From Oscillospiraceae bacterium (GTDB taxonomy: Bacteria > Bacillota > Clostridia > Oscillospirales > Ruminococcaceae), in the NCBI GenBank assembly GCA_017435745.1, contig JAFSEN010000102.1, positions 1 to 63,312 on the forward strand: a stretch of DNA of 63,312 bases, written 5' to 3'. The position numbers were made by a program, and so were the translations under genes. This document shows positions 3,923 through 50,938 of the stretch, one piece after another. A model generated the notes under the pieces. The model made no database searches. It saw only the letters and a program-made list of their open reading frames with translations, and had not been told where the DNA came from. Within the stretch, counting starts at the first letter, position 1. Every line of letters starts with the position of its first letter.

Positions 3923-4339
3923 ATGACTATTGCTGAAAAAGTTGCACATCTCAAAGGTCTTATGGAAGGCCTTAACTGCGACGACAAAGTTCTCAACGCT
4001 ATCGTTGACATCCTCGAAGATCTTGCATACGATGTAGAAGACGTTCAGGACGCTCTTGCAGAAGTTGGCGAACAGGTTGAACTTATCGACGAAGACCTTG
4101 AAGCACTTGAAAACGATTATTATGAATTCGACGACGATGACTGCGACTGCGATTGCTGCTGCGACGATGATGATTGCGATTGCTGCGACGACGAAGATCT
4201 CTACGAAGTAGAATGCCCCGCATGCGGCGAAGTTATCTGCATCGACGGCTGCATCGTTGACGAAGGCGAAATGGATTGCCCCAACTGCGGCGAACATCTC
4301 GAATTTGACCTTGACGAAGAAGAGGAAGACGAAGAATAA
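3923..4339 (+). CDS. CD1247 N-terminal-domain-like acidic protein with an Asp/Cys tract and a C-terminal zinc ribbon
   Basis: 138 aa. Helical N-terminus (AEKVAHLKGLMEGL), tract DDDDCDCDCCCDDDDCDCCDDED, then CPACG...CPNCG. AAGGAG RBS present, 48 nt after the efp stop. Confidence 0.75.
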   Translation: MTIAEKVAHLKGLMEGLNCDDKVLNAIVDILEDLAYDVEDVQDALAEVGEQVELIDEDLEALENDYYEFDDDDCDCDCCCDDDDCDCCDDEDLYEVECPACGEVICIDGCIVDEGEMDCPNCGEHLEFDLDEEEEDEE

Positions 4340-4389: not shown

Positions 4390-4586
4390 AAATAGTTTCG
4401 GGGCAGGGTGAAATTCCCTACCGGCGGTGAAGCGGCTTTGTCCGATAAGTCCGAGAGCCTTTTTGGCAAGAACGGGTCAGAATCCCGTACCGACGGTGTG
4501 TGCAAATTTTTGCATAAGTCCGGATGGCGAAACTGCGTGAAGAAATTTGTGCTCCGTACAAAAATTTGTGCGGAGCCTTTCTTTTT
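4390..4586 (+). promoter_or_regulatory. FMN riboswitch (RFN element) with expression-platform terminator
   Basis: Conserved cores GGGGCAGGGTGAAATTCCCTACCGGCGGT, GGTCAGAATCCCGTACCGACGGT and AAGTCCGGATGG. Hairpin CTCCGTAC...GTGCGGAG plus a T-run lies at 4551-4586, directly upstream of ribU. Confidence 0.88.
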
Positions 4587-4647: not shown

Positions 4648-5220
4648 ATGAAAAACATGAACACAAAAAAACTTACAACTCTCGGCGTACTTGCGGCCTG
4701 CTCCATTGTTCTGGTCGCTTTCATCCATTTTCCGATTTTCCCCGCCGTTTCTTTCCTTGAATATGACCCTGCGGATATTCCGATACTTATAGGTACATTC
4801 CTTTTCGGACCGGTTTGGGGAGTTGTTTTAACCGTTCTTGTTTCCGCAATTCAGGGAATGACTGTTTCCGCCCAAAGCGGCGTTTATGGAATTGTAATGC
4901 ACATAATCGCAACAAGCGCTTTCACCCTTGTTGCAGGTTCCATTTATAAACACAAAAAAACCAAAAAAGGTGCTCTTATCGCAATCGCCTGCGGTGTTCT
5001 TGCAATGGTTGCGGTTATGTATCCGGCAAACCTTGCGCTCACTCCGGTTTATCTCAACGCAATGGCGGGAATGGAAATTGAAGCCGCAAAAGGAATGGTA
5101 AAAAGCCTTATGCCTTTTATCCTTCTCTTTAACCTTACAAAAGCCGGAATAAACGGTGCGGTTACTTATCTTGTTTATAAACGCATCCATAAACTTCTCG
5201 GAAAGCTTAACCTTGCGTAA
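4648..5220 (+). CDS. ribU: ECF transporter S component, riboflavin transporter RibU-like
   Basis: 190-aa multi-TM protein immediately downstream of the FMN riboswitch. The ATG at 4648 was chosen instead of the longer ORF, which would read through the riboswitch. Confidence 0.85.
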   Translation: MKNMNTKKLTTLGVLAACSIVLVAFIHFPIFPAVSFLEYDPADIPILIGTFLFGPVWGVVLTVLVSAIQGMTVSAQSGVYGIVMHIIATSAFTLVAGSIYKHKKTKKGALIAIACGVLAMVAVMYPANLALTPVYLNAMAGMEIEAAKGMVKSLMPFILLFNLTKAGINGAVTYLVYKRIHKLLGKLNLA

Positions 5221-35202: not shown

Positions 35203-37206
35203 TTATTGTTTAACTTTAAGAAGGCGGAGCGACCAGAGAACGGTTATAAGGCAAACGCCAACATCCGCAAAAACCGCAAGCCAAATCGGAGCATAGCCAA
35301 GAGCGCCGAGAATGAGCACAGCAACTTTTACGGCCATGATGAAAATTACGTTCTGGCGGACACAGGCCATTATTTTCTTTGCAATGGAAATTGCGGAAGG
35401 AAGGGCGGAAACGCCGCCTTTCATAAGCACAATATCGGCAGATTCAATCGCTGCGTCGGTTCCCATTCCCATAGCTGCGCCGACATCTGCCGCCGCGAGC
35501 ACGGGAGCATCGTTTATTCCGTCGCCCACAAAAACCGTGGTTCCGGTTTTCTTGATTTCTTCGGTGCGGTCAACTTTATCTTCGGGCATAAGGGAAGCGA
35601 AATAACCGTCAAGGCCACATTCTTCTGCAATTTTTGCGGCAGCGTGCTCATTATCCCCGGTGAGCATAAAGCTGTGCTCAACCCCGAGCCTGCGCAGTTT
35701 TTCAACGGATTCTTTTGCTTCGGGCCTTACGGTATCCTCAAGGAAGATGCTTCCGGCAAACAAGGAATCAACAGCAATATAAAGGCTTGCGCCATGAACA
35801 TCCGGAAGAACTGTGCCGGCGTGCTCAAAAAGTTTTTTGTTTCCGCAAATTACGGAAACTTCGCCGAAACTTACGGTAACTCCTTCGCCGGCAATTTCGT
35901 TTATTTTATCTGCGGCGGGGAAATCGATGTTTCTGTTTTCCGCTTCCGAAACCACGCATTTTGCAATAGGATGGTCGGAAAGAGCTTCTGCCGCTGCGGC
36001 ATAGCGAAGAATATCGTTTTCGGAAAAACCGTTTGCGGTTTTTATTTCCGCAACCCGGAGGATTCCGGAAGTTAGGGTGCCGGTTTTGTCAAAAACAGCG
36101 TTTTTGATTTTTGCAAGGCGTTCGCAGTATTCCGAACCCTTGATTATAACGCCCTGTTTTGATGCCGCGCCGATTCCGGCAAAATATGCAAGAGGAATTG
36201 AAAGAACAAGAGCGCAGGGGCAGCTTGAAACAAGGAAAACAAGGGCGCGGTGGGCGCTTTCGGAAACACCGAGCCAGCCGAACACCAGCGGAACCGCAAA
36301 AACAAGAATGGCAAGAATGATTACGATTGGGGTGTAAATTTCGGAAAAACGGGTGATGAATTTTTCGGTTGCGCCTTTTTTTGCAGAAGCGCCTTCGACC
36401 ATTTCGATTATTCTTGAGGCGGCGGAATCGCCGTATCCGCTTACGGTTTCACAATGCGCGGGGCTTCCGAGAACGACACATCCGGCTTTAAGGATTTCGC
36501 CGGGAGCAATATGCACCGGAATGCTTTCTCCGGTGAGAGCGGAAGAATCTGCCATAACGCTTTCGGAAAGAACCCGGCAATCAAGCGGAACTCTTTCGCC
36601 GACTTTTACGATAATTTCCGTGCCGATTTCAACTTCCGCCGCCGGAACGGATTCGATATCTCCGTCATTCGGACAAATGATGTTTGCTGTGTCCGGGCGG
36701 ATATCCGCAAGGGCGGAAATGTTCTTTTTGGAACGGTTTACCGCAAGTCCTTCAAGATTTTCACCGAAGGTGAAAAGAAGAGCAACCATTGTTCCTTCAA
36801 CGTATTCGCCGATTATAAAAGCCGCAACAACGGCAATTGACATAAGGGTTTCTTCCCCGAAATGGAAACGGAGAATATCTTTAAAACCTTCCTTAAGAAC
36901 TTCTCTTCCGGCAACAAGAGTTACCGCAAGGCAGATCAGGAAAGCAAAAGGTCTTAAAAACGGAATAAAACTGAGCGCAAAAACAGCCGCGCAAATTCCG
37001 GAAAGCAAAAGTTCTTTTTTAATTTCGTCGCTGTCTTTTCCGCCGTGACATGCGCAGGAATGTTCGTGACATTCGTGGCCGCATCCGCAATGGTCGCCGT
37101 GACAATGGTCGTGATGATGTTCGTGTTCGCGGCAGGAACAGTTGTCGTCATGGCAATGTTCGTGTTCATGGCAGCAACATTCTTTTTCGTGGCAATGTTC
37201 GCTCAT
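35203..37206 (-). CDS. cadA: Heavy-metal (Cd/Zn/Co-type) P1B-type ATPase with a His/Cys-rich N-terminus
   Basis: CPC motif (SSCPCALVLS), DKTGTLT, HP (SDHPIAK) and VGDGINDAPVLAAAD. N-terminus MSEHCHEKECCCHEHEHCHDDNCSCREHEHHHDHCHGDHCGCGHECHEHSCACHGG. GGAGGA RBS. Confidence 0.9.
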   Translation of the reverse strand: MSEHCHEKECCCHEHEHCHDDNCSCREHEHHHDHCHGDHCGCGHECHEHSCACHGGKDSDEIKKELLLSGICAAVFALSFIPFLRPFAFLICLAVTLVAGREVLKEGFKDILRFHFGEETLMSIAVVAAFIIGEYVEGTMVALLFTFGENLEGLAVNRSKKNISALADIRPDTANIICPNDGDIESVPAAEVEIGTEIIVKVGERVPLDCRVLSESVMADSSALTGESIPVHIAPGEILKAGCVVLGSPAHCETVSGYGDSAASRIIEMVEGASAKKGATEKFITRFSEIYTPIVIILAILVFAVPLVFGWLGVSESAHRALVFLVSSCPCALVLSIPLAYFAGIGAASKQGVIIKGSEYCERLAKIKNAVFDKTGTLTSGILRVAEIKTANGFSENDILRYAAAAEALSDHPIAKCVVSEAENRNIDFPAADKINEIAGEGVTVSFGEVSVICGNKKLFEHAGTVLPDVHGASLYIAVDSLFAGSIFLEDTVRPEAKESVEKLRRLGVEHSFMLTGDNEHAAAKIAEECGLDGYFASLMPEDKVDRTEEIKKTGTTVFVGDGINDAPVLAAADVGAAMGMGTDAAIESADIVLMKGGVSALPSAISIAKKIMACVRQNVIFIMAVKVAVLILGALGYAPIWLAVFADVGVCLITVLWSLRLLKVKQ

Positions 37207-37210
37207 TTTT

Positions 37211-37552
37211 TTAATCCTCCTCCACATGTGAAATTCCGGTGCAGAGAATTGCGCCGATATGGGCGTCGTCAAGGGAATAATAAATCTGTTTTCCTTCCCG
37301 GCGGTTTTTGATGAGTCTTGCGGCTTTAAGAACCGAAAGCTGGTGCGAAACTGCGCTCTGGCTCATATCAAGAAGATCGCAAAGGCAGCAGACGCACATT
37401 TCCCCTTCGGAAAGGGCGGCAAGAATTCTTATTCTTGTTTTATCGCCGAAAACTTTGAAAACTTCGGCGGTTTTTTCAAGAACTTCCTCGGAAGGCATAT
37501 TTGCTTTTGTCTGGGAAATTATATGGGCGTGTTCCGGGTGTATATCGGGCAA
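37211..37552 (-). CDS. ArsR/SmtB-family metalloregulator (CzrA/CadC-like)
   Basis: FKVFGDKTRIRILAAL...CVCCLCDLL..SQSAVSHQLSVLKAARLI. A TTG start at 37552 with AGGAG 8 nt upstream is preferred. The ATG at 37597 lies inside the operator and has no RBS. Confidence 0.85.
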   Translation of the reverse strand: MPDIHPEHAHIISQTKANMPSEEVLEKTAEVFKVFGDKTRIRILAALSEGEMCVCCLCDLLDMSQSAVSHQLSVLKAARLIKNRREGKQIYYSLDDAHIGAILCTGISHVEED

Positions 37553-37578
37553 AATTATCAACTCCTGAATAATATGAA

Positions 37579-37637
37579 CATATGAACAATTATTCATATG
37601 TTGATTTGAGTATAGCCCTGTTTCGGCCCTGTGTCAA
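37579..37637 (-). promoter_or_regulatory. Promoter (TTGACA-17-TATACT) plus SmtB/CzrA-type operator for the arsR-cadA operon
   Basis: -35 at 37632-37637 and -10 at 37609-37614 (minus strand). Operator CATATGAACAATTATTCATATG at 37579-37600 contains the TGAACA-N2-TATTCA core. An extra half-site AATATGAACA lies at 37571. Confidence 0.75.
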
Positions 37638-38795: not shown

Positions 38796-39278
38796 GTGAA
38801 AAAATTGACCGATGAGGAATATATGCGCGAAGCTCTTGCCCTTGCAAGAAAAGCCTTTGAACTTGGGGAAGTGCCGGTGGGGGCTGTTGCGGTTTGGGAA
38901 GGAAAAATCGTCGGAAGAGGAATGAACCTTCGGGAAACGGACAAAAACGCCCTGCGCCATGCGGAAATTGCCGCAATTGACGAAGCCTGCAAAACCCTTG
39001 GCGGCTGGAGGCTTTGGAAATGTGATCTTTACGTAACGCTTGAACCTTGCCCAATGTGCGCCGGAGCTATTATAAATTCAAGAATCCGCAGAGTAATATA
39101 CGGCGCTTCCGACCCGAAAGCCGGTTCCTGCGGAAGTCTTGTGGATCTTTTTGAAATTCCGTATAACCATAAGCCGGAAGTTGTTCCCGGCGTTCTTGAA
39201 GAGGAATGTTCCGGAATACTTAAAGAATTTTTTTCAAAGCTCAGGGAAAAACGAAAAAACGAAAAACCGTCCGAATAA
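38796..39278 (+). CDS. tadA: tRNA adenosine(34) deaminase TadA
   Basis: HAEIAAI and TLEPCPMCAGAI zinc motifs. Start is uncertain (GTG 38796, TTG 38805 or ATG 38823). Confidence 0.9.
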   Translation: MKKLTDEEYMREALALARKAFELGEVPVGAVAVWEGKIVGRGMNLRETDKNALRHAEIAAIDEACKTLGGWRLWKCDLYVTLEPCPMCAGAIINSRIRRVIYGASDPKAGSCGSLVDLFEIPYNHKPEVVPGVLEEECSGILKEFFSKLREKRKNEKPSE

Positions 39279-39629
39279 CCGGGCGGTTTTTTTATAAATC
39301 ATTTCAAAAAATCCCCTGCTGTCCGAACGGATTGCCCTCGGCATATTATGTACCGTGCCCTTAAAAAGGGTTTTATATAGCGGGGGCGGAGCCATCTTTT
39401 TTGGGCAAAGCCTCCGCATTTTTTATTGGGCGAAGCAAAGGACTTTAAATGAAAATTTTTTGTAAACAAAGGCCGTCCGCTATTCCAAAACGGGTTAGAA
39501 ACGCTTTGCAAGGTTGACCTTTTTTATTGTTTTTGGTACAATAAACTGTAAAAATATATTTTTATAACATATTAGGGAACTTTTTTACCGGAAAACAGCA
39601 GTTTTACAATTTAAGGAGATGTTTTTGAG

Positions 39630-40289
39630 ATGAAAGAAGCAATTATTGCGCCTTCAATCCTTTCCGCAGATTTTGCAAAGCTTGGTCAGGAATGTGCCGA
39701 CATGGAAAAAGCGGGAGCGGATCAGCTCCACATCGACGTTATGGACGGACATTTTGTTCCTAATATAAGCTACGGTGCTCCGATTATGAAAAGCCTGCGT
39801 AAGGTCAACAAGATGTTTTTTGACACTCATCTTATGATTTCCGAACCGCTTAAATACATCGAAGATTTTGTTAAAGGCGGCGCGGACAGAATCACCTTCC
39901 ACCTTGAATGTGATAACGACCCGATGGAAGTTATTGAAAAAATTAAATCCTTCGGCGTTCTTCCCGCAATTGCAATAAAACCCGGAACCCCTTATGAAAA
40001 AGTTGTGCCCTATCTTCCCTTTATCGAAATGGTACTCGTAATGACTGTTGAACCCGGTTTCGGCGGACAGAGCTTTATGGAGGATATGATGCCGAAAGTA
40101 AAAGCTTTAAGAGAGATCATCGATAAAGAAGGACTTTCCGTCAACATCCAGGTTGACGGCGGAATCGACAAAAACACTATCGGAAAAGCCGCAGAAGCCG
40201 GCGCAAATATTTTTGTTGCAGGTTCGGCGCTTTTCCGCCAGGAAGATTATACAAAAGCCGTTGCGGAACTTAAAGAAGCCGCAAAATAA
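39630..40289 (+). CDS. rpe: Ribulose-phosphate 3-epimerase
   Basis: 219 aa. IAPSILSADF, HIDVMDGHFVPN, MTVEPGFGGQSF and VDGGI. Confidence 0.95.
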   Translation: MKEAIIAPSILSADFAKLGQECADMEKAGADQLHIDVMDGHFVPNISYGAPIMKSLRKVNKMFFDTHLMISEPLKYIEDFVKGGADRITFHLECDNDPMEVIEKIKSFGVLPAIAIKPGTPYEKVVPYLPFIEMVLVMTVEPGFGGQSFMEDMMPKVKALREIIDKEGLSVNIQVDGGIDKNTIGKAAEAGANIFVAGSALFRQEDYTKAVAELKEAAK

Positions 40290-40316
40290 GGAAATCTATC
40301 CTATTGGAGGAAAACA

Positions 40317-41363
40317 ATGTCATTTTTTGTAAAAGGCATACTTCTTGAACAAAAGAAGGAACCAATGCTGACAAGAAGCACCCTTGTAATGCGCCAGGAA
40401 TTCGAATATTTTGAATGCGATTTTTCGGATGTTCCGGTTGAAGAACTTTCCGGCGAACAGATAATCGAACTTGCGCGCCTTGCAGAAATAGTCGATGAAA
40501 GCGACGGAAAAATGCTTTGGGAAAAGCTTGAAAAAGCAAACCTTGGCGAAGGCGGAACGCTTGTAATCGATGCGATCGATGATGAACCCTATATCTCAAG
40601 CCAGATGAGTATCGGAATACATCAGCCGGAAAAACTTGCTGCGGGAATTGAACTTTGCGAACGGGCGGTTTCCCCGGAAAAAACATATATTGCGATGTAT
40701 CGCCATATTCTTGATTCCAACTTCGGAATCCCGGGTAAAATCGGAAAATATAAAGTCAAAAAAATCGGCGGACGTTATCCCGCCGAAAGCAGAGTTTACC
40801 GCCATATTCCCAAGGGAAAAAACTCTATAATAGTGGGCGCCTGCGCAATGCTCCATCTTGCAAGAGCGGCGGAAGAAAACAGAAAGATGACAACCTGTTT
40901 TGTAACCGTTGCCGGCGACATTGTAAAAAACCCGAGAAATATCGAAGCACCCATCGGGACCACCGCAGAAAAACTTCTTGAACTTTGCGGACTTACGGAT
41001 GAACCGGAAGCAATAGTGGTCGGCGGTTCCATGACCGGAAGGGCGATTTTTGAACCGGAAAACGAAACGGTCGGCCCGACCACAAGGGGCGTTATTGCCC
41101 TTGCAAGAAGCTACGGTACATACAGCTACACCTGCATAGGCTGCGGAAGATGCGACCATGCTTGCCCAAAGGCTCTTTCCGTCTGCGCAATGAGAAAATT
41201 TGCGGAAGCCGGGGAACTTGATATGCTCAGGCACTATGATATTTCCCTTTGCATAGGCTGCGGAGCCTGTTCCTACGTTTGTCCTTCAAGAATCGACGTC
41301 GCAGCAACTCTTATAAAAGCAAAAAAACAGATTGAAATTGCAAAGAAGGAGGGGACGTTATGA
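40317..41363 (+). CDS. RnfC-like subunit, truncated and degenerate (SLBB plus 2x[4Fe-4S] retained, nucleotide loop lost)
   Basis: 348 aa. CIGCGRCDHACP and CIGCGACSYVCP are present. The position of the canonical GLGGAGFP loop reads DESDGKML, and ECEPY reads DDEPY. VVGGSMTG is retained. Confidence 0.75.
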   Translation: MSFFVKGILLEQKKEPMLTRSTLVMRQEFEYFECDFSDVPVEELSGEQIIELARLAEIVDESDGKMLWEKLEKANLGEGGTLVIDAIDDEPYISSQMSIGIHQPEKLAAGIELCERAVSPEKTYIAMYRHILDSNFGIPGKIGKYKVKKIGGRYPAESRVYRHIPKGKNSIIVGACAMLHLARAAEENRKMTTCFVTVAGDIVKNPRNIEAPIGTTAEKLLELCGLTDEPEAIVVGGSMTGRAIFEPENETVGPTTRGVIALARSYGTYSYTCIGCGRCDHACPKALSVCAMRKFAEAGELDMLRHYDISLCIGCGACSYVCPSRIDVAATLIKAKKQIEIAKKEGTL

Positions 41364-42490
41364 AAGAAAAACTGATGTTCCAAAACGCTCCCCATGTTCG
41401 CCAAAGCGAATCCGTCGTGACTATGATGGTTGACGTTATCGTCGCCCTTGTTCCGATTTATGCAATGTGCTTTTTCTATTACGGAGCAAGAAGCATAATG
41501 CTCGGCCTTGCGGGAGCTTTTATCTGCTTTGCTCTTTCTGCTCTTGGTTCTCTTGCTCTTCGCGAAAAACCTGTTCCGGATCTTACGCCGATTATAACCG
41601 GACTTATAATCCCGCTTCTTATGCCGGCGAATATTCCGTATTACGTTGTTTTCTCCGCCTGCGCGGTTGCAATTCTTGTTGTAAAATTCCCCTTCGGCGG
41701 AACGGGAAACAACCTTTTTAACCCCGCGGCCGTAGGTTTTGCTTCCGTTGCAATCTGCTGGCCGGAACTTGTTTTCAGCTATCCGGCGGCGATGCAAAAA
41801 ATTGAAATTTTTGGAGAAACAACCGCAAAACTTGCCCAAAGCCCGGCTTACAGCCTTTCTCTCGGCGCTGTCCCGGATTACGGCGTTCTTGATATGCTTC
41901 TCGGAAGCGCCCCGGGACCTATGGGCGCAACAAACGTTCTTGTTGTTGCCGCCTGCGGAATTTTTCTCATCGTAAAAAAAGCAATAAACTGGGTAACTCC
42001 GGTGTTTTTCCTTCTTCCCTATGCTTTCCTCTGCATCCTTTTCCCGAGAATCGGCGGTTCCGCTTTCGATGCGTTTTGTTATGAACTTTTCAGCGGAATG
42101 ACCGTTTTCGGCGCATTCTTTATGCTTACAGAGCCGGTAACTTCGCCGAAAAGGGATTTCGGAAAAATCATGGCGGGGGTTTCTTCCGCATTTGTTGTTT
42201 TCCTTTTCAGATATTTCGGAGAATTTGAAATGGGCTTTGCAAGCGCGCTTATCGTAATGAACGTGTTCTCTCCGATTTTCGATGCGGTATGCGAAAACGT
42301 TCTTCATGTTTACAGACATAAAGAAGCGCTTTTGGATTCTTTCAAAAAGAAAAAAGAGGAACCGGAAGTTTCGGTTTTTGAAGAAAAAACCGAAGAAAAA
42401 ACCGCTTCCGAAGAAACAACCGAAATTCCGAAAGAGGAAGAAACCGAAATTTCTGAAAACGAAACTGAACATGAGGAGGCTGTGGTATGA
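41360..42490 (+). CDS. RnfD/NqrB-family membrane subunit with an acidic C-terminal tail
   Basis: FQNAPHVRQSESV, multi-TM, GSAPGPMGATNVLVVAACGIFLIVKK. Tail EEPEVSVFEEKTEEKTASEETTEIPKEEETEISENETEHEE. 4-nt overlap with the upstream gene. Confidence 0.8.
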   Translation: MKEKLMFQNAPHVRQSESVVTMMVDVIVALVPIYAMCFFYYGARSIMLGLAGAFICFALSALGSLALREKPVPDLTPIITGLIIPLLMPANIPYYVVFSACAVAILVVKFPFGGTGNNLFNPAAVGFASVAICWPELVFSYPAAMQKIEIFGETTAKLAQSPAYSLSLGAVPDYGVLDMLLGSAPGPMGATNVLVVAACGIFLIVKKAINWVTPVFFLLPYAFLCILFPRIGGSAFDAFCYELFSGMTVFGAFFMLTEPVTSPKRDFGKIMAGVSSAFVVFLFRYFGEFEMGFASALIVMNVFSPIFDAVCENVLHVYRHKEALLDSFKKKKEEPEVSVFEEKTEEKTASEETTEIPKEEETEISENETEHEEAVV

Positions 42491-43122
42491 GCAAAATGAA
42501 AGCTTATTTCAAAGAAAGCCTCGGCTATATCTTTTTTAAAAACCCGGTTCTCGTTCTCGGTCTTGTAATCGGCCAGCTTGCCGCGGGAGATAACAACCTT
42601 CGCAACGCGGCGGCCCTTTCCGTAACGTATTTTCTGATAATCGTTCCGGTTCTTTTTCTGGCTTCAACTGTCGGCAAAAAACTTCCGGATTGGTTAAAAC
42701 CGGTGTTCTATGCCGCTTTTTCAGCGGCGATGCTCTTGCCCTCGTATTTTATAAGCGGAAGTTTTTCCGCAACGATTTTCGATTCGGCGGGTATTTATCC
42801 GGCTCTTCTTGCGGTTTCAACCGTTCCGATTGTTTTTGCTGAAAAAATTGCGGAAAAACAAACCCCCGGAAAAGCTTTTGCAAACGGAATCTGCCTTGCC
42901 GTCGGTTTTGCCGTTACCGCAATTATTCTCGGCGCGGCAAGAGAGATCCTTGCAAACGGAAGCCTTTGGGGAATAAAATTTGCTGAAATTCTTTTCCCTG
43001 CGGCGGATCTTCCTTTCTGGGGATTTATCTTCCTCGGATTTATGGCTGCGGCGGTAAACTTTATAAAAGAATTTATTAAAAAACCGGAAGAAACTTCGGC
43101 TGGTGAGGAGGAGAAAGCATGA
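42487..43122 (+). CDS. RnfE/NqrD-like membrane subunit (conserved Cys positions substituted)
   Basis: FKNPVLVLGLVIGQLA (canonical LGLCP) and LLAVSTVPIVFAEKIA (canonical TNC-x-LGRAEAFA). 4-nt overlap with the upstream gene. Confidence 0.72.
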   Translation: MSKMKAYFKESLGYIFFKNPVLVLGLVIGQLAAGDNNLRNAAALSVTYFLIIVPVLFLASTVGKKLPDWLKPVFYAAFSAAMLLPSYFISGSFSATIFDSAGIYPALLAVSTVPIVFAEKIAEKQTPGKAFANGICLAVGFAVTAIILGAAREILANGSLWGIKFAEILFPAADLPFWGFIFLGFMAAAVNFIKEFIKKPEETSAGEEEKA

Positions 43123-43712
43123 GTTTTATTTTTCAGTTCCTCACAATGATGATCATGGCGCTTTTTGTTGAAAACATTATTTTCACAAGGGCGCTTGGAA
43201 CAAGCTGGATGTTCTATCTTATAAAACATCCGAAAGAAATTTTGCAATATACCGTTCTGCTTGCGGTTGTAACAACTGTTTCCGGCCTTGCGGGATATCC
43301 TCTTGTGGGCTTTGCCCAGAACAGCGAATATCACCATGTTCTTGTTCCGATGCTTTATATCGGAATCATGGCTATAGTTTATATCGCTGTTTATTTCTTT
43401 ACGAAAAAAGTTCTTCCCGGCAAGTTCGAGCATTTTGGAATGAACCTCGGGGTTGCTGTTTTCAACTGCGCAACTCTCGGAAGTCTTCTTGTTCCCGCGG
43501 GAGAAAGACTTGACCTTATAAGCACTCTCGGTTACGGAATCGGAATGAGTTTCGGTTTCGGTTTTGCAACAGTAATGCTCGGATACGGTCTTTCAAGGCT
43601 TGAATATTGCCGCGTTCCGAAAATATTCAAAGGGGTCCCGATTTCTCTTATCTATCTCGGACTTCTTTCTCTTGCATTCTATGGCCTTATCGGCCACCAG
43701 CTTCCCACATAA
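43119..43712 (+). CDS. RnfA/NqrE-like membrane subunit (one of two conserved Cys retained)
   Basis: VENIIFTRALGTSW (canonical LGICP), VAVFNCATLG retained, and C-terminus VPKIFKGVPISLIYLGLLSLAF. 4-nt overlap with the upstream gene. Confidence 0.72.
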   Translation: MSFIFQFLTMMIMALFVENIIFTRALGTSWMFYLIKHPKEILQYTVLLAVVTTVSGLAGYPLVGFAQNSEYHHVLVPMLYIGIMAIVYIAVYFFTKKVLPGKFEHFGMNLGVAVFNCATLGSLLVPAGERLDLISTLGYGIGMSFGFGFATVMLGYGLSRLEYCRVPKIFKGVPISLIYLGLLSLAFYGLIGHQLPT

Positions 43713-43724
43713 AAGGTTTTTGTT

Positions 43725-45122
43725 ATGAAAAGATATAAAATCAGACATTATCGTTCAAGAATTTACAATCCCATAAGAGGAAAAATAATAAAATTTGTGC
43801 TTATTGCGGTTATTGTTGCTTCAATTTTCGGAATAGGCTGGTTCGCTTATGAACCCCTTATGACCGCAATAAACGAAAAAAACAAGGAAATCGTTGAACA
43901 GGAACCCGTTCCGGAAAAACCGCAGGAACCGGCCTATGTTCCCGTTGAGGAAGAGTTTCTTGAAAAAGAAACTGTCGGCGTGGTCGTTCCGGAAGAATCC
44001 CTTTACAACGCTCTGGATTATTACGATTTTTTAAGCTCTCTTGATGAGGAAGTTACCGCGGTGGTAATCGATATGAAAACCCAAAGCGGAACCGTTACAT
44101 ACAAATCAAATCAGATAAGCGTAATAAATGCCGGCGCTGCTCATGCCGAGGCAGTTGACCTTGATTCAAGAATCAAAACCGCCCGCAAAATGGGCTTTGA
44201 CGTTGTGGCAAGAATCTTCGTGTTCGAAGACAGCACAGCGCCTTATAACGCCATTGATATGGCCATAAGGTATGAATCTGAAGACGGAATTCTCTGGCTT
44301 GATGACAGCGTTGACAACGGCGGAAAACCCTGGCTCAACCCCTATTCCGATACCGCGCAGAAATATGTTCTCGATATCGTTTATGACGCAATAGACAGCG
44401 AAGTTGACGCAATAATCCTTGACGGAATGCGCTTCCCGGAAAAGCTTGAAAGCATGGAATATGCATATTTCGGTGTCGGAACAGAAGAAGTTTCGCAGAA
44501 AAATGTGCTTGCGGAATTTGCAAAGAGAATCTATCTTTCCTCCGTTGTTACCGACACAAACATCATAATCGGATTTGACAGCTATGAACAGATAACCGAA
44601 AGCGGAATCTACGGCGAAAACGCCCTTTCTCTCAGCGGCGACGGCTATGCTCCGCTTATCGATATAGATAAGTTTGTCGGCGAAAAAATAAACGACGATT
44701 TCTATTTCAGAAGAATGCCCGAAGATATAACCGAGGTTTTTGTAAAAATTTATGAATCCATCGGAAATATTTCCGGACTCAATATGATCCCGGTTCTTGA
44801 TTTCGAAGGTTTTACACAGAAAGAAACCGAAGGAATCTTCAGCTATCTCCGGGAAAAGAACGCCTTGGGATTCTTTGTGATCTATGACGAACCCTATTTT
44901 ACCGGAATCGTTCCGGAACCCGAAATTTCCGACCCCCAAAATCCTTCCGCACCGGTTGTTCCGCAAACGCCGACAACACCTTCTGTTCCGGTAACGCCTT
45001 CCGTTCCCGAAACTCCTTCGGTGCCCGAAACTCCATCTGTTCCGGAAAATCCTTCCGAAGAGGATGAGGAAAACCCTCCGGAGGATACATCAGGAAGCCA
45101 TTTCGGAAAACCTTCGGATTAA
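43725..45122 (+). CDS. Membrane-anchored putative glycoside-hydrolase-like (DUF4015/GHL-type) protein with a Pro-rich tail
   Basis: N-terminal TM IIKFVLIAVIVASIFGIGWF. VTAVVIDMKTQSGTVTYKS..., WLNPYSDTAQKYVLDIVYDAIDSEVDAIILDGMRFP. 12 nt after the rnfA-like stop. Confidence 0.7.
   Translation: MKRYKIRHYRSRIYNPIRGKIIKFVLIAVIVASIFGIGWFAYEPLMTAINEKNKEIVEQEPVPEKPQEPAYVPVEEEFLEKETVGVVVPEESLYNALDYYDFLSSLDEEVTAVVIDMKTQSGTVTYKSNQISVINAGAAHAEAVDLDSRIKTARKMGFDVVARIFVFEDSTAPYNAIDMAIRYESEDGILWLDDSVDNGGKPWLNPYSDTAQKYVLDIVYDAIDSEVDAIILDGMRFPEKLESMEYAYFGVGTEEVSQKNVLAEFAKRIYLSSVVTDTNIIIGFDSYEQITESGIYGENALSLSGDGYAPLIDIDKFVGEKINDDFYFRRMPEDITEVFVKIYESIGNISGLNMIPVLDFEGFTQKETEGIFSYLREKNALGFFVIYDEPYFTGIVPEPEISDPQNPSAPVVPQTPTTPSVPVTPSVPETPSVPETPSVPENPSEEDEENPPEDTSGSHFGKPSD
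44979..45050 (+). repeat. Four tandem 18-bp in-frame repeats (PSVPxT)
   Basis: CCTTCTGTTCCGGTAACG / CCTTCCGTTCCCGAAACT / CCTTCGGTGCCCGAAACT / CCATCTGTTCCGGAAAAT. Confidence 0.85.
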
Positions 45123-45129
45123 CAAAACA

Positions 45130-45160
45130 AAAAAAGGCGGTTCGATGAACCGCCTTTTTT
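45130..45160 (+). terminator. Intrinsic terminator of the rnf-like/GHL operon
   Basis: AAGGCGGTTC GATG AACCGCCTT followed by TTTT. Confidence 0.85.
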
Positions 45161-45168
45161 ATATAAAG

Positions 45169-45200
45169 AAAAAAAGCGCTCTCCTTTCGGAGAACGCTTT
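45169..45200 (-). terminator. Intrinsic terminator downstream of the cofE-like gene
   Basis: AAGCGCTCTCC TTTC GGAGAACGCTT with an A-run on plus, giving a U-run on minus. Confidence 0.75.
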
Positions 45201-45215
45201 TTGTTTTTTTTAAAA

Positions 45216-46409
45216 TCAGGTTGTATAGTTATCGAAATAACCCTGAACAAGGATAACCGGAGTGCCTTTGTCGCCGGAACCGGAAGTAAGGTCGCAAAGA
45301 GAACCGATAAGGTCGGTAAGCTGGCGGGGAGTGGTTCCTTCGGAAGCCATGTTGCCCACAAGGTTTGCGTCTTTTGCTTTGATGCTTTCGGAAATTGCGT
45401 TTTTAAGTTCTTCGCCGGAAAGATTGCTGAAATCGTTGTCGGCAAGATATTTAAGTTTAAGCTCGTTGGGGGTTCCGATAAGTCCTTCGGTATGGAAAGG
45501 AGAAACAACCGGGTCTGCAAGTTCCCAAATTTTTCCCTGAGGATCTTTGAATGCGCCGTCGCCGTAAACCATTACTTCAACGTGTTTTCCGGTTGCTTCA
45601 AGAACGCGTTTCTGGATATCGAGAACAAGATCCTGGCTGTCGCGGGGGAAGAGTTTTACGGTGTTTTCGGTTGCTTTGTTGGAACCGAGAAGGCCGTATT
45701 TTTCGTTGTAACCGCCGCTGATGGGGGAAGTAAGGATATCGTCAAGGCCGAGAACAATTTTTGCGCCTGCTGCTTTAAGGATGCGTTTGGTTCTTGCGCG
45801 GGTGTGGATATCGCAGGTGAGAACGCAGTCGGTGTAATCAAGAATTGCTTTTGCCTGGTTTGCAAAAACAATTTCAACCTCTGCGCCTTCCTCTTTAACA
45901 AGGCCGCAGTAATAATCAACGTAGTCAACGCCGGTGAACTGGTGTTTGTTTTCGCCGAAAAGTTCGCGGTATTTTTCAAGAGAGAGAACGTCGGAATAGG
46001 GGTTTACTCCGGCTTCGTCAAGTTTATCAAGGCTTACAAGCTCGTTGCCGACTTCGTCGGAAGGATAGGAAAGCATGAGAACAACCTTTTTGCAGCCTCT
46101 TGCAATTCCGCGAAGGCAGATTGCAAAACGGTTTCTGGAAAGGATCGGGAAGATTACGCCGACGGTTTCTCCGCCGAATTTTGCTTTAACATCGGCGGCA
46201 ATGTCATCAACGGTTGCATAGTTGCCCTGGGCTCTTGCAACAACGGATTCGGTGATTGCGATTACGTCACGATCGCGGATTTCAAAACCTTCGGATTCAG
46301 CTGCTTCAAGAACGCTTGCGGTTACCATTTCGCCAAGGTTATCGCCCTGACGGAAAATGGGGCAGCGAATGCCGCGGGATACGGTACCAACTTTTCTGGT
46401 GTTTGCCAT
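45216..46409 (-). CDS. CofE-like (F420-0:gamma-glutamyl ligase family) protein
   Basis: 397 aa from the ATG at 46409. VGTVSRGIRCPIFRQGDNL...VIAITESVVARAQGN...; C-terminus GTTPRQLTDLIGSLCDLTSGSGDKGTPVILVQG. Confidence 0.72.
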   Translation of the reverse strand: MANTRKVGTVSRGIRCPIFRQGDNLGEMVTASVLEAAESEGFEIRDRDVIAITESVVARAQGNYATVDDIAADVKAKFGGETVGVIFPILSRNRFAICLRGIARGCKKVVLMLSYPSDEVGNELVSLDKLDEAGVNPYSDVLSLEKYRELFGENKHQFTGVDYVDYYCGLVKEEGAEVEIVFANQAKAILDYTDCVLTCDIHTRARTKRILKAAGAKIVLGLDDILTSPISGGYNEKYGLLGSNKATENTVKLFPRDSQDLVLDIQKRVLEATGKHVEVMVYGDGAFKDPQGKIWELADPVVSPFHTEGLIGTPNELKLKYLADNDFSNLSGEELKNAISESIKAKDANLVGNMASEGTTPRQLTDLIGSLCDLTSGSGDKGTPVILVQGYFDNYTT

Positions 46410-46619
46410 AAAATTACAGATCCTTTCTATATAAAGACTTTTTTTATCTATTGTAAAAAAGTCCCTTTTTCGTCCTTTTTCAAGGCAAAAAAGCAATATC
46501 TACAACAGAATATTATACATAAATATATTCTTTTCCGCAAGATGTTTTTTATAATTTTAGGTGTGGAGTTTTATAAAATTTTTTGTTTTTTGAAGTCTTA
46601 TTTTTTGTGTTTATATCAC

Positions 46620-46650
46620 AAAAAAAGCGGAACAGAACGTTCCGCCTTTT
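46620..46650 (-). terminator. Intrinsic terminator downstream of the XRE gene at 46651
   Basis: GCGGAAC AGAAC GTTCCGC hairpin flanked by A7 and T6 runs. Confidence 0.75.
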
Positions 46651-47025
46651 TTAGATAAGTTTTTTCAAAAGCTCCTCCGGAGCGGTTTCGTAAAGTTTTG
46701 CAATGGCAATAAGGTTTGTGGTGCTCGGTTCGGAAGAACCGTTTTCCCATTTTGAAACTGCCTGGCGCGAAACGCCGAGATTTTCGGCAACAAATTCCTG
46801 GGTCATGTTTCTTTCGGTACGCAGTTCCTTAAGGGTTTCGCCAAGGGTTTTGCGGATCTCTTCCTGCTGCGGGGTAACGGGTTCCGGTTGAACGTAAGAT
46901 ATGTTGTTATTTCTGTTCCTTCTTGCAACAACAATTATGATAACGATAACCGCTGCAACTGCCAAAAGGGAAAGCAAAAGCCCAAGGCCGAAGAAAATGA
47001 ATAATCTTGAACTGATAACGCTCAT
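46651..47025 (-). CDS. XRE-HTH regulator with an N-terminal TM anchor
   Basis: MSVISSRLFIFFGLGLLLSLLAVAAVIVIIIVV then MTQEFVAENLGVSRQAVSKWENGSSEP. AAAGGAGAG RBS before the ATG at 47025. Confidence 0.8.
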   Translation of the reverse strand: MSVISSRLFIFFGLGLLLSLLAVAAVIVIIIVVARRNRNNNISYVQPEPVTPQQEEIRKTLGETLKELRTERNMTQEFVAENLGVSRQAVSKWENGSSEPSTTNLIAIAKLYETAPEELLKKLI

Positions 47026-49447: not shown

Positions 49448-50938
49448 ATGGATAAAAGAGAAACCGGCGTTCTTCTCCATATTTCCTCCCTTCCTTCCAA
49501 CCATGGAATAGGAACTTTTGGAAGAAGCGCCTATGAATTTGTTGATTTTCTTGTGGAAGCAGGCCAGACTTATTGGCAGGTGCTTCCCCTTGGCCCCACA
49601 AGCTATGGCGATTCCCCCTATCAATCTTTTTCAACTTTTGCGGGCAACCCCTATTTTATCGACCTTGATTTTCTTGTAATCGACGGTTTTCTTGAGGAAA
49701 AGGACCTTGAGGGGATAAACTGGGGAACAGAACCCATGTATGTTGACTATGCCCATATTTATGAAAACCGCTTCGATGTTCTTCGCAAGGCATATAAAGC
49801 ATTTATGAAAAAAGGCGACCTTGCGGCATTTTCCGCCTATTGTGAAAAAGAAGAAAAATGGCTCGACAACTATGCCCTTTTCATGGCGCTCAAAAATCTT
49901 CACGGCGGAAAATGCTGGCGTGAATGGGAAAAACCTTTTTATTCCCATGATGAAAAGGCTCTTGAAAAATTCAGGAAAGAAAACGCCGAAGAACTCGGCT
50001 TTTGGAAATATCTCCAGTATGAATTCACCCGCCAATGGAAAAACCTTAAAAATTATGCGAACGAGCGTGGAATAAAAATAATCGGCGACCTTCCGATTTA
50101 TGTTGCGGATGACAGCAGCGACGTTTGGGCGTCTCCGGAACTTTTTGATTTTGATAAAGAAAGACGTCCGCGCAACGTTGCCGGCGTTCCTCCGGATTAT
50201 TTTTCCGAAAACGGCCAGCTTTGGGGAAACCCAATCTATAATTGGGAAGTCCACAAGAAAAACGGATATAAATGGTGGATCGAACGCCTTTCTTCCTGCA
50301 GGGAAAAATACGACGTTCTCAGAATTGACCATTTCCGCGCTTTTGCGGATTATTACTGCATTCCCTTCGGTTCCGAAACCGCCAAAAACGGCGAATGGAA
50401 GGACGGCCCCGGAATGGATCTTTTCAGCAGGGTTTTTGAGGAACTTAAGGGTTATCCGATAATTGCGGAAGACCTTGGCGATTTAAGCCAGGCGGTTGTT
50501 GATCTTTTGGAAGAAAGCGGACTTCCGGGAATGAAGATTCTTGAATTTGCTTTCGGTTCCGATGACCCGAACAACGATTGTCTTCCCTATAACTTCAAGA
50601 AAAACTGCGTCTGCTATCCGGGAACCCATGACAACATGCCCGTTGCCGGCTGGCTTGAAACTGCTTCCGAAAACGAAATTGCTTTCTGCAAGGAATACAT
50701 AAATTATAAAGAAGGCGAAGATTTTACCGATGCGTTTGTAAAAGCGGTTCTCGGAACCGCAGCAAACACCGCCATTATCGCAATGCAGGATTGGCTCGGC
50801 ACCGGAAAATATACAAGAATGAACGAACCTTCAACCTCCGGCGGAAACTGGCAATGGCGCCTTCTTAAAGGCCAGGCGGATTTTGAACTTGCAAAACGCA
50901 TGTATCACCACGCAAAACTTTACGGAAGGCTTAGATAA
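49448..50938 (+). CDS. malQ: 4-alpha-glucanotransferase (amylomaltase)
   Basis: 496 aa. GVLLHISSLPSNHGIGTFG, LGPTSYGDSPYQSFS, LRIDHFRAF, IAEDLG, PGTHDN. Confidence 0.95.
   Translation: MDKRETGVLLHISSLPSNHGIGTFGRSAYEFVDFLVEAGQTYWQVLPLGPTSYGDSPYQSFSTFAGNPYFIDLDFLVIDGFLEEKDLEGINWGTEPMYVDYAHIYENRFDVLRKAYKAFMKKGDLAAFSAYCEKEEKWLDNYALFMALKNLHGGKCWREWEKPFYSHDEKALEKFRKENAEELGFWKYLQYEFTRQWKNLKNYANERGIKIIGDLPIYVADDSSDVWASPELFDFDKERRPRNVAGVPPDYFSENGQLWGNPIYNWEVHKKNGYKWWIERLSSCREKYDVLRIDHFRAFADYYCIPFGSETAKNGEWKDGPGMDLFSRVFEELKGYPIIAEDLGDLSQAVVDLLEESGLPGMKILEFAFGSDDPNNDCLPYNFKKNCVCYPGTHDNMPVAGWLETASENEIAFCKEYINYKEGEDFTDAFVKAVLGTAANTAIIAMQDWLGTGKYTRMNEPSTSGGNWQWRLLKGQADFELAKRMYHHAKLYGRLR

Follow-up and report, generated by a model that had tools for sequence, protein, structure and literature searches.

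Can a membrane module that has kept four subunits of a redox pump still carry electrons when most of the residues that hold the cofactors are gone, and what would then be its relation to the envelope-facing protein encoded with it? The question is raised by five genes of an Oscillospiraceae bacterium (assembly GCA_017435745.1, contig JAFSEN010000102.1; the whole stretch of 63,312 nucleotides (nt) that was analysed is called the window below). Four of their products are homologues of RnfC, RnfD, RnfE and RnfA, referred to here as the C-, D-, E- and A-like subunits, and the fifth, referred to as X, is a membrane protein of family DUF4015. With a probability of about one half, we take the module for a membrane complex derived from Rnf and Nqr that is unable to carry electrons across the membrane, that has X in an extracytoplasmic position and that probably serves a glycan-active enzyme. 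A first-pass annotation, made from the window alone, had proposed an Rnf scaffold repurposed from ferredoxin:NAD+ coupling and possibly linked to an envelope-facing, glycoside hydrolase-like gene, a view now supported by ligand loss throughout the family and by synteny.

Loss of the cofactor sites

The cofactors of the membrane subunits are considered strictly conserved in RNF and NQR in a review of 2025 (PMC12174285). The electron path of Rnf comprises the clusters of RnfB, the [2Fe-2S] cluster of RnfA/E, the flavin mononucleotide (FMN) of RnfG, the FMN and riboflavin of RnfD, and the clusters and FMN of RnfC (PMC12174285). Ligand columns of the window proteins were read from HMMER alignments to chains of solved Rnf/Nqr complexes.

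The E- and A-like subunits match Pfam family Rnf-Nqr (PF02508) at 72 and 82 bits, respectively. In the A-like subunit, the first ligand cysteine (LGiCP) is replaced by Ser29 (LGTSW), within a GTS motif conserved in the family, and the second, Cys117, is kept (FNCATLG), both as the first-pass annotation had read them. The second ligand of the E-like subunit is lost as well, 'NC' being replaced by S111-T112 with Thr112 at the ligand column. Its first ligand column is occupied by Gly29 of VIGQ, with no cysteine nearby; this loss had been recognized correctly (LGLCP to LGLVIG) but in a register about two residues off. Cys117 of the A-like subunit is the only one of the four [2Fe-2S] cysteines left in the window, so that the earlier count of three missing ligands stands. 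A further cysteine of the A-like subunit, Cys164 in RLEYCRVPK, is new with respect to canonical proteins and mostly conserved across the family. An AlphaFold2 model of the E-like subunit based on 42 homologues (predicted local distance difference test score, pLDDT, 78; predicted template modelling score, pTM, 0.77) gave Foldseek TM-scores of 0.76-0.85 with RnfE/NqrD chains and of 0.57-0.70 with RnfA/NqrE chains.

The D-like subunit belongs to Pfam family NQR2_RnfD_RnfE (PF03116, 228 bits). The FMN-threonine, to which the first-pass annotation had drawn attention, lies in TTAT of C. tetanomorphum RnfD (7zc6_D) and corresponds to Lys157 (TTAK) in the window. This column is variable in the family (K, D, V, G, R and others), and the ApbE-type flavinylation motif D..[ST][GST]A[TS] was found in none of 111 D-like proteins. 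Nine loci have a threonine at this position; it was rejected as a flavin site, no flavinylation motif surrounding it.

The C-like subunit has an SLBB domain and two Fer4 motifs in Pfam, together with a sub-threshold match to Complex1_51K (21.3 bits against a gathering score of 31.2) and no match to RnfC_N. Its alignment covers C. tetanomorphum RnfC from about residue 97 onward, and the N-terminal domain is gone, in agreement with the earlier reading. Also confirmed was the loss of the glycine-rich FMN/NADH loop: GMGGATFP in RnfC (NuoF-like GxGGAxFP) is replaced by I58-VDESDGKM. The change of CEPY to D89-E-P-Y (D88-DEPY) had been listed beside it; the substitution is real, but it is by itself no ligand loss, and the loss that matters is that of the FMN loop. 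Both CxxCxxCxxxCP motifs are intact (C273/276/279/283 and C312/315/318/322), as had been noticed. Their eight cysteines are invariant among 37 family members, in which the motifs [IV][IVT]DExDG and DAxDDEPYISSQ are conserved too. Longer C-like proteins that retain an RnfC_N-type domain occur at two loci, L044 and L046 (loci are designated here by L and a number).

All NCBIfam models for Rnf and Nqr placed the window proteins far below their curated cutoffs: 136 bits against 246 for rnfC, 161 against 207 for rnfD, 49 against 213 for rnfE and 67 against 229 for rnfA, with 83-96, 31-34 and 30-47 bits for nqrB, nqrD and nqrE, whose cutoffs are at least 235.

The first-pass annotation had reported no equivalent of RnfG or RnfB, and the Pfam scan of the five open reading frames (ORFs) agreed, with no FMN_bind or RnfB-type domain hidden in or fused to any of them. 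There is no space for rnfG between the D- and E-like genes because these overlap by 4 nt. Neither rnfG nor rnfB was present in the annotated flanks of L001-L004 and L041-L046, and neither NqrF (the FAD/[2Fe-2S] NADH dehydrogenase) nor NqrC (with covalent FMN) is encoded in the window operon. No second D, E or A copy was found within the 63-kb window or loci L001-L046. Since only the two RnfC clusters of the cofactor chain survive, no transmembrane electron path can, as far as the sequences tell, be drawn for the module.

Distribution of the module

The E-like subunit was searched exhaustively against 1.84 billion representatives, yielding 792 representative clusters (50% identity) at E <= 0.001 and 270 at E <= 1e-10. 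The canonical second E-like cysteine was absent from all of the best 150 of the 792 matches, which were those inspected; lower ones may include canonical RnfE. Among 143 E-like sequences spanning both columns, the window included, both cysteines were gone in 105 and only the first was left in 38.

For gene neighbourhoods, 36 species-representative genome loci were seeded from the E-like subunit (alignment of six sequences), ten were added by exact-protein look-up and 80 metagenomic loci were seeded from X. With family hidden Markov models (HMMs), 117 loci were mapped and grouped into 28 lineage clusters at 60% A-like identity, the lineage counts being based on our own ORF calling and HMMs. Over the four [2Fe-2S] columns, 99 of the 117 loci had one cysteine, 18 had none, and none had more than one. 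The surviving cysteine depends on the lineage. The window clade has kept the second ligand of the A-like subunit; Acutalibacteraceae and L044/L046 have instead kept the first of the E-like subunit, often with an additional cysteine about nine residues downstream.

The order D-E-A-X was present in all 28 lineage clusters, at E-like identities down to 24-30%. Conservation of the five-gene unit across Clostridia had been proposed as a check in the first-pass annotation; what proved invariant is this four-gene core, the C-like gene being missing from four clusters (Acutalibacteraceae, counted over 24 loci with enough flank, Ca. Fimivicinus, L040 and L043). The persistence of D-E-A-X in these clusters indicates that the core function does not need the Fe-S protein. 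In a reciprocal search seeded from X, 77 metagenomic loci were testable, and in 75 of them the A-like gene, with E and D where sequence allowed, lay directly upstream. Named hosts were all Oscillospirales: uncultured Oscillospiraceae known from metagenome-assembled genomes of ruminant and human gut, the isolate Zongyangia hominis, Hydrogenoanaerobacterium, Ca. Fimivicinus and Acutalibacteraceae. The Acutalibacteraceae lineage is abundant in the human gut, and its A-like protein was found on at least 1000 contigs.

These data bear on one alternative explanation, a canonical Rnf complex acting as ferredoxin:NAD+ oxidoreductase with its ligands at offset positions or with rnfG and rnfB elsewhere. 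The four subunits are clearly homologous to those of Rnf, and JGI pipelines call some members 'RnfA' or 'RnfE'. We nevertheless hold this explanation to be highly improbable. In the alignments, three of the four ligand columns are without cysteine, and these losses are fixed throughout the family; lysine stands at the FMN-threonine position, the flavinylation motif is missing throughout and the FMN loop of the C subunit is replaced. In addition, the NCBIfam scores are far under the cutoffs, PGAP gives generic names only ('4Fe-4S binding protein' and 'putative glycoside hydrolase' for the Z. hominis proteins), and the order C-D-E-A-X without G or B is kept across lineages as diverged as those above.

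The gene rpe, for ribulose-phosphate 3-epimerase, lies upstream of the module in every lineage cluster with enough flank except one. In many diverged lineages (L038-L041, L045, L046 and many of L066-L127), rpe and the module are separated by an opposite-strand gene for a MecA-like ClpC adaptor (e.g. L041:7048-7629, minus strand). The ancestral layout seems to have been rpe, opposite-strand mecA, [C]-D-E-A-X, with mecA lost from this place in the window subclade.

Selection on the module

Ratios of nonsynonymous to synonymous substitution (dN/dS) between the window and four relatives were 0.15-0.22 for D, 0.21-0.33 for E, 0.18-0.22 for A, 0.14-0.21 for X and 0.07-0.15 for C; the same comparison gave 0.04-0.13 for rpe. 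All five module genes are under purifying selection. The A-like subunit has more than 200 homologues at 70-86% identity, nearly all of 197 residues. Loss of ligands and of two subunits would likewise be expected if the module were the decaying remnant of a duplicated rnf operon that lies beside a DUF4015 gene by chance. Such decay is the least credible of the explanations considered: the low dN/dS values (0.07-0.33), the constant A-like length, the conserved replacement motifs and the intact E-like fold show that the module has not decayed, and the ORFs are intact and translationally coupled. Chance adjacency is further opposed by the retention of D-E-A-X in the 28 lineage clusters and by the outcome of the search seeded from X.

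The DUF4015 protein

X matches DUF4015 (PF13200) at 81.5 bits against a gathering score of 27, as the first-pass annotation had proposed for the last gene. Its architecture comprises a basic N-terminal tail (charge +5 to +10 in all lineages), one transmembrane helix ending in GW..Y.P, a variable linker and the DUF4015 domain, to which a proline-rich C-terminal tail is added in the window clade. X is predicted to be a type-II membrane protein with a cytoplasmic N-tail and a TIM-barrel-like DUF4015 domain outside the cytoplasm. Invariant residues are K118, D169, W191, D193, G199, G200, W203, L204, P206, Y214 and P238; no conserved cysteine or cofactor motif was found in the family. The X family profile matched 4S1A, the only solved relative and annotated as an uncharacterized protein, at E = 2e-25, with the conserved core of the domain, K, D, W-x-D, W-L-N/D-P and F-P, aligned. 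The K/D/D/W/N/Y constellation is invariant in X and common to the DUF4015 consensus and 4S1A, and X looks like an active ecto-enzyme.

Members of DUF4015 cross-match the glycoside hydrolase-like families GHL10 (PF02638) and GHL6. X of L043 exceeds the GHL10 threshold (29.4 against 27.9 bits), other members score 18-35 bits (18-22 bits for GHL10 alone), and window X has no GHL10 match in Pfam. E. coli DigH, a GHL10 protein (453 bits), degrades denuded peptidoglycan glycans (PMC12288456), and the motif W-L-(N/D)-P...Y...D-x-x-x-F/Y-P aligns the X family with it, at an hhalign probability of 1%. In a study of B. anthracis sporulation, YkyA domains were reported fused to polysaccharide deacetylases or to DUF4015 (PMC12700454). 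The facts on GHL10/DigH and YkyA are leads toward an envelope-glycan substrate for X rather than proof of one.

A nomenclatural point concerns X of L096 (5911-7038), whose 90%-identity cluster also holds unrelated GH13 proteins of 618 residues. The name 'GH13' on this cluster was dismissed as a clustering artefact. It probably arose from a fused gene call, and the wrong name 'alpha-glycosidase' could spread to X.

Possible function of the module

The layout of X, with its N-terminus inside, a single transmembrane helix and a globular domain outside, mirrors that of RnfG. In the explanation that we prefer, X would dock on the D/E/A subunits via its helix and basic N-tail, in the place of RnfG. 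The D/E/A subunits would serve as platform or transducer in the membrane for a glycan-cleaving ectoenzyme, which they would position, gate or supply and whose target is probably a cell-envelope polysaccharide. The control input might be the inward/outward switching inherited from RnfA/E, alternating access being established for these subunits in the parent family (PMC12174285), or the ion path of RnfD; in lineages that keep the C subunit, its Fe-S clusters might alternatively make it a cytoplasmic redox or iron sensor. In a more far-reaching scheme, a pump scaffold was exapted to a non-redox machine in which ion flow or alternating access powers, switches or feeds the DUF4015 ectoenzyme that replaced RnfG, with an Fe-S sensor subunit in the cytoplasm as an additional input in some lineages. 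We put this further scheme forward tentatively, as a possibility with the odds against it.

The basic tail of X has a potential counterpart in the C-terminal tail of the D-like subunit (42308-42490). The first-pass annotation had noticed its acidity, rightly (net charge -12), but had put its length at about 55 residues; it measures 61 and is specific to the window subclade, distant lineages having short or basic D tails. Pairing of an acidic D tail with a basic X tail was consequently rejected as a universal docking feature. The tail is hypervariable, of low complexity and cytoplasmic, and in L020 the D-like tail reaches up to 341 residues with a net charge of -90. In Acutalibacteraceae and Fimivicinus, an acidic tail is found on the E-like subunit instead (L096:4263-5246 and L068), and the N-tail of X is longer there.

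The main rival explanation is transport. The RnfA/E-like heterodimer, an inverted-repeat pair, and the RnfD-like channel might now form a solute or ion-coupled transporter, which would take up a sugar or oligosaccharide freed by X or else export or flip a precursor glycan for processing by X. The role of X would then be that of a substrate-delivering ectoenzyme and not of a regulated effector. In place of the cluster cysteines stand residues that are small or polar (A-like subunit: Ser29; E-like subunit: Gly29, Ser111 and Thr112; relatives: N-S/T), and a hydrophilic intramembrane pocket would result. Alternating access of RnfA/E in the parent family (PMC12174285) and the dispensability of the C-like subunit also agree with transport, as do sugar genes nearby. 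Besides rpe, these include a cytoplasmic GH13 alpha-glycosidase 13 nt after X in 36 of 38 Acutalibacteraceae loci (e.g. L096:7051-8907), a GH77 4-alpha-glucanotransferase a few kb from the module in the window clade (window 49448-50938) and in L046, pentose-catabolic genes downstream in L041 and L042, and, in one deep lineage, a GtrA-like gene directly after X. The last of these (L044:4993-5859) encodes a membrane protein of the GtrA/DPMS family, a family of lipid-linked sugar translocation. A transporter nonetheless appears rather doubtful to us. Only 3 of 28 lineage clusters have GH13 or GH77 near the module, so that a link to alpha-glucan metabolism was rejected and the two genes were retained as weak support for transport. 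Kinases, isomerases and binding proteins show no consistent linkage to the module, organic solute transport is not known for any Rnf/Nqr homologue, and the strongly conserved Fe-S subunit would be left without explanation.

Several observations weigh against the non-redox complex with an ectoenzyme that we prefer. The C-like gene is the most constrained of the window clade (dN/dS 0.07), which suggests that Fe-S chemistry still matters there, and the D-like subunit may still bind a non-covalent riboflavin. Two stand-alone X-type genes, L094:2280-3407 and L105:476-1795, are not preceded by D-E-A; the former follows a helix-turn-helix regulator and the latter directly follows an opposite-strand mecA, and both are possible secondary losses or paralogues. 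Adjacency alone is no proof of a complex, because rpe, surely not a subunit, is a near-universal neighbour too. The pairing D-E-A-X is obligate as gene linkage; physical association of X with D/E/A is a prediction. With respect to X itself, the link to DigH stands at the level of clan and borderline HMM matches, with the low hhalign probability given above, the aspartate of the DYxRFP-like motif is not invariant (threonine in L038), the structure model from the single sequence reached a pLDDT of 40, and searches of literature and structures returned no characterised DUF4015 member.

The first two of these points would fit a residual redox function, in which electrons pass from ferredoxin to the [4Fe-4S] pair of the C-like subunit, on to a flavin or quinone held non-covalently by the D-like subunit and finally to an acceptor in membrane or envelope, X being an accessory. 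The eight invariant cysteines of the C subunit and its constraint speak for such a path, and canonical RnfD holds a non-covalent riboflavin beside the RnfC clusters (PMC12174285). One membrane cysteine and a new cysteine in a cytoplasmic loop are moreover conserved in most A-like proteins. We judge this path improbable, the C subunit being missing from four lineage clusters, the most abundant one included, while D-E-A-X persists. The path would have no route across the membrane, since an FMN site in C, RnfG, the [2Fe-2S] site and a flavinylation motif are all missing, and X has no conserved cysteine or cofactor motif.

Gene layout and other features of the window

The ORF coordinates confirmed the description of five tightly coupled genes on one strand (Table 1). 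The C/D, D/E and E/A junctions are 4-nt overlaps at 41360, 42487 and 43119, a 12-nt gap precedes X at 43725, and 27 nt separate the end of rpe from the C-like gene.

Table 1. Coordinates of the module and its flanking elements in the window
Feature	Position	Strand	Description
C-like gene	40317-41363	+	348 aa, RnfC-like
D-like gene	41360-42490	+	376 aa, RnfD/NqrB-like polytopic subunit
E-like gene	42487-43122	+	211 aa, RnfE/NqrD-like
A-like gene	43119-43712	+	197 aa, RnfA/NqrE-like
X gene	43725-45122	+	465 aa, DUF4015 membrane protein
rpe (ribulose-phosphate 3-epimerase)	39630-40289	+	Pfam Ribul_P_3_epim, 244.6 bits
Sigma-70-like promoter (candidate)	39514-39542	+	TTGACC, 17-nt spacer, TACAAT, extended-10 TG; upstream of rpe
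Two G+C-rich hairpins	45130-45160 and 45171-45202		A-/T-run flanks, 14-pair stems

The promoter candidate, a consensus match only, agrees with the consensus at 10 of 12 positions and was the top site in a scan of 39200-45400; it is the likely start of the transcription unit. The hairpin pair, which begins 8 nt past the stop codon of X, constitutes a predicted bidirectional intrinsic terminator common to X and to a convergent gene at 45216-46496 (-). Because the promoter precedes rpe, the gap between rpe and C is short and the terminators follow X, the transcript is likely rpe-C-D-E-A-X, in which rpe is probably a co-transcribed neighbour and not a subunit. An Rfam scan detected no riboswitch or leader close to this operon, and models of anti-phage defence gave no match. 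Antisense ORFs of up to 485 residues at 41273-42472 (-), 40596-41234 (-), 42795-43433 (-) and 45201-46658 (+) were discarded as compositional artefacts; naive longest-ORF calling prefers such antisense ORFs over the real module genes that they overlap. The product of the convergent gene matches the F420-0:gamma-glutamyl ligase family at 185 bits, an unexpected assignment for a gut Clostridium; adjacency of the gene to the module is not kept in other lineages.

Elsewhere in the window, an FMN riboswitch (74 bits, 4390-4538, +) precedes an ORF ending at 5220 for a RibU-like riboflavin S-component of the energy-coupling factor (ECF) type, so that the organism probably imports riboflavin. A small ORF at 3923-4339 (+) has an extreme Asp/Cys-rich run (DDDDCDCDCCCDDDDCDCCDDED) followed by zinc-ribbon-like motifs, CPxCG...CPNCG. 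A P-type ATPase with a long His/Cys-rich N-terminal metal-binding stretch (CHEKECCCHEHEHCHDD...) is encoded at 35203-37272 (-), beside an ORF resembling ArsR-type helix-turn-helix repressors at 37211-37597 (-) that was assigned by eye; the two are probably a heavy-metal efflux unit.

Implications

In the literature library that we searched, no publication connects DUF4015 to genes of Rnf type or reports a clade of cofactor-less or repurposed Rnf. Rnf and Nqr are seen as redox pumps with strictly conserved membrane cofactors (PMC12174285), and a deep, abundant clade under strong selection departs from that, having kept the scaffold without the electron path. Metabolic reconstructions of gut Oscillospirales that count matches to 'RnfA/D/E' as energy conservation will be wrong for the module loci. 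The module also offers a natural experiment on the Rnf/Nqr membrane core without redox chemistry, e.g. on conformational switching or the ion path, and the orphan family DUF4015 gains its first strong functional context, a membrane complex. A cultured host, Zongyangia hominis, is at hand. If control of a hydrolase or transport were true, a new type of envelope machinery would exist in major gut commensals, and an exapted non-redox machine would stand for an unrecognised class of envelope remodelling or glycan processing, common in Oscillospirales of human and ruminant gut. That the function is categorically new is conceivable, although we would not expect it.

Comparison with known systems

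The closest known system is the Rnf complex (RnfCDGEAB; PDB 7ZC6, 8AHX, 9ERI), a Na+/H+-translocating ferredoxin:NAD+ oxidoreductase. Its C, D, E and A subunits are homologous to those of the module and are encoded in the same relative order, and its chains were the best PDB sequence matches of the C-, D-, E- and A-like subunits. The E-like fold superposes on RnfE with a TM-score of about 0.8, and the C-like subunit keeps the two [4Fe-4S] motifs. Differences are as clear: Rnf includes RnfG, an FMN protein outside the cytoplasm, and RnfB, a poly-ferredoxin on which ferredoxin docks, whereas the window module is without both. Rnf has four [2Fe-2S] cysteines and the module family at most one; the FMN-threonine of RnfD and the FMN loop of RnfC are absent from the module, and RnfC_N is absent from the window clade. 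Conversely, the gene for the DUF4015 ectodomain protein is an invariant addition, and the C subunit is dispensable in some lineages.

Na+-NQR (NqrABCDEF) has homologues of the D-, E- and A-like subunits in NqrB, NqrD and NqrE, respectively. This complex keeps its [2Fe-2S] cluster, both covalent FMNs, NqrC and the electron-input subunit NqrF, whereas the module lost those sites; it has no glycosidase-like partner, and the module has X. NqrA, a homologue of RnfC without redox cofactors that turned structural, provides a precedent for such losses (PMC12174285), but the C-like subunit keeps the Fe-S clusters that NqrA lost. PrdC, the electron-transfer protein of proline reductase, is a homologue of RnfC that works outside a full Rnf complex. 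The C-like subunit reached 44 bits with its model TIGR04481 (cutoff 490), and, unlike the C-like gene, PrdC is not encoded beside homologues of RnfD/E/A or DUF4015.

On the side of the ectoenzyme, DigH is a lipoprotein that hydrolyses envelope glycans, whereas X is predicted to be anchored as a type-II membrane protein and is encoded with an Rnf-like scaffold. Extracellular cell-wall hydrolases are controlled by FtsEX, a membrane complex of the ABC-type ATPases. The module may resemble it by functional analogy only, a polytopic complex with a cytoplasmic partner governing a wall-cleaving ectoenzyme, with no kinship in sequence or structure. Judged from its genes, the module fails most of the tests that define Rnf and Nqr, and yet it clearly descends from both.

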